Shown one piece after another: positions 32,011 to 32,150 of a stretch of DNA of 64,000 nt (within the stretch, counting starts at the first letter, position 1; every line of letters begins with the position of its first letter). The notes under the pieces were generated by a model that saw nothing but the letters and a program-made list of their open reading frames with translations, had not been told where the DNA came from and ran no database searches. The stretch lies in the NCBI RefSeq assembly GCF_048403405.1, contig NZ_CP183129.1. The stretch is one strand, 5' to 3'. The DNA comes from Escherichia coli (lineage in GTDB: Bacteria > Pseudomonadota > Gammaproteobacteria > Enterobacterales > Enterobacteriaceae). Position numbers and translations under genes: made by a program.

Positions 32011-32142
32011 ATGAAAAAGAAACCGGTTGCGCAGTTGGAGCGTCAGCATTCACTGCTGGAAAATCCATGTGCTTATGGGTTGTTATCGCAGTTCCAGGCT
32101 GCGATAGTCGTTAACTGTTTTACACTTAATAAAATAATTTGA
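32011..32142 (+). CDS. yqgB: Small protein YqgB (43 aa)
   Basis: Encodes [43 protein letters not shown]; stop lies 8 nt before the speA ATG. Below the ORF-track length cutoff. Confidence 0.8.
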
Positions 32143-32150
32143 GGTTCGCT

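Follow-up and report, generated by a model that had tools for sequence, protein, structure and literature searches.

The small gene yqgB as a probable cis-acting upstream ORF in the structured leader of Escherichia coli speA

Classical translational coupling, by termination-reinitiation or by the melting of a hairpin, is known from trpE-trpD, trpB-trpA, galT-galK, and the coat-dependent genes of the RNA phage MS2. In these systems, the upstream stop codon lies near the downstream start or overlaps it. The same is seen for the small gene yqgB and speA, the gene of the biosynthetic arginine decarboxylase, and here the downstream start is placed in a predicted structure that a ribosome coming from upstream would open, as in the classical systems. 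Unlike the upstream genes of the classical pairs, yqgB is a small ORF with a barely constrained peptide and does not encode an enzyme. Moreover, speA has a second, independent internal start (giving SpeA-70), and coupling is what we infer for this locus.

Short leader ORFs are also found in polyamine operons with Rho-dependent termination downstream, namely in speFL-speF and mdtU-mdtJI (Adams et al. 2021), and yqgB resembles them in all these respects. SpeFL is an ornithine-sensing arrest peptide, and the mdtU-mdtJI pair is spermidine- and Rho-dependent. In contrast to both, yqgB has no conserved C-terminal arrest motif, its overexpression gives a heat-shock response which is not arrest-like, and it abuts the main start, an arrangement that speFL and mdtU do not require. 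The yqgB-speA pair was listed by the same authors among uncharacterised candidate uORF pairs (Adams et al. 2021), and our literature search found no mechanistic study of yqgB-speA coupling.

At the same locus, two isoforms of the enzyme are described, SpeA-74 from the annotated start and SpeA-70 from an internal start, and conservation of synonymous sites in the 5' part of speA was noted together with them (Meydan et al. 2019). That conservation was credited to the internal start. In our analysis, however, the frozen sites map to predicted helices which link yqgB, the primary AUG, and the Shine-Dalgarno sequence (SD) of the internal start. The gene itself belongs to the YqgB family (NF033844, PF11036) and is the same as b2939 in sequence, length (43 aa), and place. 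The names given to this family are those of an acid-stress or virulence protein; the pattern of conservation described below points instead to a cis-acting leader ORF.

The window analysed is a stretch of 64,000 nt from E. coli (contig NZ_CP183129.1); its features are collected in Table 1. An earlier note on this DNA had described a 43-codon ORF ending 8 nt before the speA start and had matched it to YqgB of K-12. The sequence confirms the ORF and its distance to speA, and the alignment to b2939 of K-12 MG1655 gives 132/132 identical nucleotides, without a frameshift and with the ORF conserved. The span given for the gene, 32011-32150, is correct at its start and too long at its end, since 32150 takes in the spacer and the ORF with its stop codon ends at 32142. 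A program-made ORF call opens at GTG 31996, five codons 5' of the annotated ATG; the conserved start is this ATG and not the GTG.

Table 1 Features of the yqgB-speA region, with positions in the window
Feature	Position	Strand	Basis
5' leader of speA, extent as in the clone of Adams et al. 2021; contains yqgG and yqgB	31653..32150	+	forward primer starts at 31653
yqgB CDS, 43 sense codons (from ATG 32011) and stop codon (TGA 32140-32142)	32011..32142	+	sequence and ORF list; identity to b2939; NCBIfam and Pfam YqgB models passed
Predicted helix AACCGGTxGCxCAG / CTGTxTATGGGTT, enclosing CAGCA/TGCTG hairpin (32044-32058)	32021..32081	+	RNAalifold
Conserved predicted hairpin in yqgB, TATCGC...GCGATA, codons 25-32	32084..32106	+	RNAalifold helix 6
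yqgB codons 33-36, predicted long-range helix with speA 32199-32208	32107..32116	+	RNAalifold helix 7
speA SD GAGG, overlapping the yqgB TGA	32141..32144	+	sequence; 6-nt spacing to ATG
8-nt spacer between yqgB stop and speA start, GGTTCGCT	32143..32150	+	sequence
5' arm of predicted speA AUG hairpin (GUUCGCU-A-UG-U-CUGACGA)	32144..32161	+	MFE; RNAalifold helix 9
speA, biosynthetic arginine decarboxylase, 658 aa, annotated primary start	32151..34127	+	ORF list; NF003763, 935.7 bits; RefSeq
3' arm of predicted speA AUG hairpin (UCGUCAG-CG-GGCGAAC), speA codons 11-16	32181..32196	+	MFE; RNAalifold
Published Rho-dependent RNA 3' end, MG1655 3085854, flagged 'uORF'	32208	+	Term-seq of Adams et al. 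2021, mapped to the window
Internal in-frame speA start (SpeA-70), Met27 by count	32229..32231	+	SD AGGAGG 32218-32223, 5 nt before ATG; literature

yqgB is more than a chance ORF. The match to the NCBIfam model NF033844 (small_YqgB) scores 90.1 bits (cutoff 35), and that to Pfam PF11036 scores 113.3 bits (cutoff 24) and covers positions 1-43 of 43. There are 3 differences from K-12 in the 1001 nt around yqgB, and the gene order yqgD-yqgG-yqgB-speA is that of K-12, with yqgB located between metK and speA. With a query of 701 nt, all but one of 5,426 complete E. coli genomes (5,425) gave a match to the region, 5,421 of them at a query cover of at least 80%. The gene is already known: both the K-12 and the RefSeq annotation list it, the latter as 'acid stress response protein YqgB', and curated family models exist.

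Two neighbouring ORFs were noted. The same leader contains yqgG (47 aa, 31774-31917, + strand; Pfam PF23505, 129.9 bits), which is antisense to yqgC, an old annotation. As two Yersinia loci likewise have yqgG called before speA, its conservation is wider than that of the intact yqgB ORF. Between speA and speB (35140-36060), a 243-aa ORF (34273-35004, + strand) is a hypothetical protein in RefSeq, and a Pfam search with it gave no match. The speA-speB interval with this ORF is covered to at least 80% in 3,550 of 5,426 complete E. coli genomes.

When YqgB was used as the query of a word-indexed protein search, the matches were limited to Escherichia, Shigella, and a single record with the label Klebsiella pneumoniae. 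The comparison was, therefore, anchored on SpeA. Eighty Enterobacteriaceae loci were fetched via the SpeA N-terminus, and 78 loci from about 25 genera had enough upstream sequence. Two labels in this set (L040, L079) look wrong: a contig named 'Chryseobacterium sp. 18061' has an Enterobacteriaceae speA locus, and 'Citrobacter freundii M-21' shares its yqgB variant with Atlantibacter hermannii.

The yqgB frame is open from the same ATG in 78/78 loci, which fall into 12 length classes of 38-91 codons. Counted from the speA ATG, the last stop base has position -9 in 55 loci and +8 in the other 23. The +8 stop, present in about 30% of the related species sampled, is a TGA overlapping speA codons 2-3, one frame over. 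An end in the speA frame or an earlier stop was seen in none of the 78 loci. In each of the species examined, the ORF ends no more than 9 nt from the speA ATG, despite indels. The distance from ATG to SD is 0 or 2 modulo 3, never 1, and that from ATG to the GCGATAG block is constant (90 nt) in the 75 loci in which this block is intact. Insertions in the body of yqgB measure 6, 21, 60, 117, and 126 nt, all divisible by 3, and Kosakonia combines a 55-nt insertion with a compensating loss of 4 nt. Switching between the two end frames is confined to the A/T-rich tail, even among close relatives; Citrobacter youngae strains and Silvania species are examples of relatives with different C-terminal tail frames.

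The AACTG and TACAC blocks flank the insertions of 6-126 nt, which lie some 120-260 nt before speA and all keep the frame open. They are found in Kosakonia, Intestinirhabdus, Atlantibacter, Yokenella, and some Enterobacter (loci L017, L029, L043, L049, L055, L056, and L072). The inserted segments are GC-rich, and as they are equally open in one other frame, openness across them is only modest evidence for a maintained ORF. For the absence of the third end frame, the rough chance probability is about (2/3)^11 = 0.01 if 11 events are taken as independent. This value is no more than suggestive, since the third frame would, in addition, join YqgB to SpeA, and such a fusion could be counter-selected for other reasons. 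A substitution-based test of ORF maintenance was dropped as too weak, with a probability of 0.87 per sequence that the frame stays open under column-wise resampling.

In nine of nine outgroup Enterobacterales loci, the frame ending at the +8 TGA is open upstream. An ATG is found in the homologous position in Serratia, Rahnella, and Mixta; in Dickeya and Pectobacterium, the start is GTG and the peptide is unrelated. The yqgB ATG is missing from Erwinia amylovora and two Yersinia species, and hence the uORF is not universal. In Y. ruckeri and Y. aldovae (L085 and L090, positions 1330-1560), the ATG is replaced by CTG, and an in-frame stop follows. Both retain the 3' RNA block (CTGCGATAGTGGCTGAC) despite the lost ATG, and both have a mutated TCGTCAG, the 3' arm of the hairpin at the speA start; they represent one lineage only.

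The frame could be incidental to a conserved, structured RNA leader, its translation having no role. This would agree with conservation that follows RNA helices and not codons, with the retained RNA block of the Yersinia loci, and with the 87% of sequences that stay open in the resampling. It does not account for an invariant ATG, a frame open at every one of the 78 loci across all length classes, indels that are frame-preserving or compensated, and initiation detected in vitro by INRI-seq. Hence, we give this explanation the least credit of those considered and regard it as very unlikely.

The peptide itself is barely constrained. By the Nei-Gojobori method, dN/dS of yqgB is about 0.8 (dN 0.255, dS 0.316) versus 0.022 for speA (dS 0.84) in the same genomes, and by this measure purifying selection on the YqgB amino-acid sequence was not found. 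The entropies at codon positions 1, 2, and 3 are 0.51, 0.64, and 0.60 for yqgB and 0.15, 0.10, and 0.95 for speA, again in the same genomes; at unpaired positions of yqgB, they are 0.81, 1.02, and 0.80. The codon pattern of yqgB is without 3-periodicity, and its variable stretches vary at all three codon positions. Blocks such as YGLLS and AIVVNCFTL show no amino-acid variation, and the invariant residues of YqgB are also invariant at the wobble position, including the rare Ile codon ATA. The length of YqgB varies between 38 and 91 aa, insertions adding 2 to 42 residues, and the last four codons of the gene are the most variable.

A reading as an arrest peptide of the SpeFL, TnaC, or MdtU type was rejected because the tail varies in frame and length and has no conserved C-terminal motif. 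In an arrest-peptide screen, overexpressed YqgB was among the sORFs which induce heat-shock proteins (aggregation), outside the arrest-like cluster.

Phenotypes of yqgB deletions have been published. An acid phenotype is attributed to Hobbs et al. 2010 in a paper that cites it. According to a 2026 paper on Salmonella, deletion of yqgB lowers speA and speB mRNA and arginine decarboxylase, and the colistin phenotype of the deletion is reversed by arginine, putrescine, and spermidine. That paper does not mention complementation. It treats YqgB as a protein drug target and docks small molecules to the 43-aa peptide.

As the annotation and the Pfam name imply, YqgB could act mainly in trans, as a small protein of the acid-stress response, and its place before speA would then reflect mere operon co-transcription. 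The curated names ('acid stress response protein YqgB' and 'virulence promoting factor'), the deletion phenotypes in acid and with colistin, the use of the start codon in vitro, and the blocks with invariant amino acids would all suit such a protein. Several observations argue against it: the dN/dS value and the missing periodicity, the invariance of wobble positions in blocks that lie on predicted helices, and the variable length with a tail frame that changes between close relatives. Furthermore, overexpression of YqgB resembles aggregation, and the Salmonella deletion affects speA and speB and is rescued by polyamines, with complementation unmentioned. We, therefore, consider a trans-acting protein unlikely. 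If yqgB is instead a cis-acting uORF, the acid and colistin phenotypes may be effects on speA. A positive role in cis is consistent with the lowered expression of speA and speB in the Salmonella deletion.

At the junction of the two genes, the yqgB stop codon lies within the speA SD (tTGAGG). The stretch TGAGGTTCGCTATG is nearly invariant among 79 Enterobacteriaceae loci, and thus the yqgB stop belongs to the speA SD. An obvious SD before yqgB was not found on inspection of the sequence.

In an RNAalifold consensus of the leader built on 52 sequences, conserved columns coincide with predicted helices, and two helices have double-sided changes. Such changes are seen in a predicted hairpin upstream of the yqgB start and in helix 4 (the AACCGG...CAG / CTG...GGTT region), in which A-U changes to G-C in 11 sequences. 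In helix 6 (TATCGC/GCGATA), 100% of cells are paired, and the invariant arms are always 11 nt apart (49 distinct sequences). Covariation in its inner stem was dropped, as the inner 11 nt often pair, but in an inconsistent register. Helix 7 is paired in 98% of cells with zero double-sided changes.

Helix 9, the predicted hairpin at the speA AUG, has 16 pairs, of which 12 are invariant and 3 vary on one side only, with standard pairs in most sequences. The hairpin is the single-sequence MFE structure in E. coli (-23.6 kcal/mol) and is predicted in 60/60 distinct Enterobacteriaceae sequences (median -20.6 kcal/mol). A partition-function fold gives a pairing probability of 0.93 for the G of the speA AUG, and the G, A, and G of the SD are mostly unpaired (0.09-0.15). 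Both arms of the start-codon hairpin are invariant, so it lacks double-sided covariation; the large helices in general are invariant and thus provide no compensatory proof of pairing. As an isolated 77-mer, the hairpin does not fold significantly better than shuffles (z = -1.26; 20/200 shuffles are as good). The 311-nt leader folds better than 100/100 shuffles (z = -2.74). The predicted hairpin at the speA AUG may form in vivo.

In speA codons 1-24, synonymous sites are frozen where they are predicted to be paired and variable where unpaired, a contrast that is partly circular because RNAalifold favours conserved columns. An Rfam 15 scan of 31000-33000 on both strands, with E-values up to 1, gave no match.

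Further elements of the leader were noted upstream. A terminator-like hairpin lies at 31933-31952 (+ strand), and its stem CTCTTG/CAAGAG is CTCCTG/CAGGAG in other genera. The supplementary passages of Adams et al. 2021 give no published 3' end for it. The invariant TTTTCTCGTGGTTTC follows this hairpin (region 31933-31966, + strand). In the RNAalifold consensus, 31953-31962 is paired with speA 32212-32222, a segment that overlaps the SD of the SpeA-70 start; both sides of this pairing are invariant and so offer no covariation. Besides the hairpin at 31933-31952, a consensus scan for promoters and terminators gave only a weak promoter-like site in yqgB (32111-32138), which is not conserved in other genera and was discarded.

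A transcript yqgG-yqgB-speAB was deemed likely from northern blots, and both the speA 5' UTR fusion and the northern blots respond to rhoR66S (Adams et al. 2021). By Term-seq, a Rho-dependent 3' end was placed 57 nt into speA, and a second 3' end is at 31767 (+ strand), 7 nt before the yqgG ATG. The former coincides with the last paired base of the predicted helix 7 between yqgB and speA, where exonuclease trimming would be expected to stop.

This could mean that translation of yqgB matters only by blocking the loading of Rho, with neither reinitiation nor hairpin melting at speA. The rhoR66S response and the 3' end at +57 would follow from such shielding, and Adams et al. (2021) suggest that Rho termination inside coding sequences follows regulated translation initiation. 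Shielding alone, however, leaves three features unexplained: the ORF end pinned to at most 9 nt from the speA ATG, the stop codon in the SD, and the conserved pairing of the AUG. As the sole function of yqgB translation, Rho shielding appears improbable, and it is compatible with the cis-acting uORF that we favour rather than exclusive of it.

For the translation starts, a Ribo-RET peak is reported at the primary start of speA even when elongation is blocked (Meydan et al. 2019). Hence, coupling, if real, need not be obligatory. The ATG of SpeA-70 is conserved in most outgroups; Erwinia amylovora has ATC and Rahnella GTG in its place. In INRI-seq data, the start codon of yqgB is detected in vitro, not in vivo. 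Hemm and colleagues reportedly saw tagged YqgB protein accumulate in 2008.

The tight translational linkage of yqgB with speA that the earlier note had implied can be judged from these data. It has indirect support from the stop codon in the SD, the pinned end of the ORF, the AUG in a predicted hairpin, and the Rho-dependent 3' end. The Ribo-RET peak at the speA start speaks against an obligatory form of it. From the sequence comparison and the folds, we consider tight linkage plausible. The idea of coupling is reasonable and was hinted at earlier in the literature; it now has comparative support.

Linkage could also work in the opposite direction. A ribosome terminating at the UGA in the SD could occlude the ribosome binding site, and yqgB translation would then repress speA, for example under polyamine control. 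The stop codon physically overlaps the SD, and yqgB has no obvious SD of its own; polyamines stimulate translation of SD-poor mRNAs. Putrescine and spermidine repress speA, as Moore and Boyle reportedly found in 1991. Deletion of yqgB, however, lowers speA mRNA and enzyme instead of raising them, and a sequestered AUG predicts help from upstream ribosomes. Occlusion is thus a highly improbable explanation.

The reading that we prefer is that yqgB is a cis-acting uORF in the structured speA leader, with the peptide being secondary. We rate it as somewhat better than an even bet. According to this model, yqgB would be translated as a 43-codon frame in the approximately 500-nt leader of the speA(B) mRNA. 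En route, its ribosomes would melt the conserved hairpin which holds the speA AUG, and they would reach the UGA embedded in the speA SD or, in about 30% of the related species sampled, the UGA 8 nt inside speA. The same or a nearby ribosome would then start the long SpeA isoform, either by termination-reinitiation or by facilitated coupling. An unbroken cover of ribosomes on the leader and early speA would, in addition, prevent Rho termination about 57 nt into speA. Conservation is seen for the start, the open frame, the end position, and a set of predicted RNA helices, and in this model the amino-acid sequence would matter little. We infer that translation of yqgB raises that of speA. Guesses for a signal, if any, that acts on the translation of yqgB are polyamines, arginine, or acid.

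A more extended version is held tentatively, at somewhat less than even confidence. In this version, yqgB would be the translated core of a multi-helix leader that sets the output of SpeA-74 versus SpeA-70 and Rho termination at +57, and both the deletion phenotypes (sensitivity to acid and sensitisation to colistin) and the drug-target claim for a 'YqgB inhibitor' would follow from reduced speA expression.

If yqgB is indeed a cis-acting uORF, the phenotypes ascribed to it would belong to polyamine synthesis, and the logic of YqgB as a drug target would fail. There would also be a mechanism for the long-known post-transcriptional control of the biosynthetic arginine decarboxylase, as well as for the choice between the SpeA isoforms and for the frozen synonymous sites in the 5' part of speA, which have lacked an explanation.
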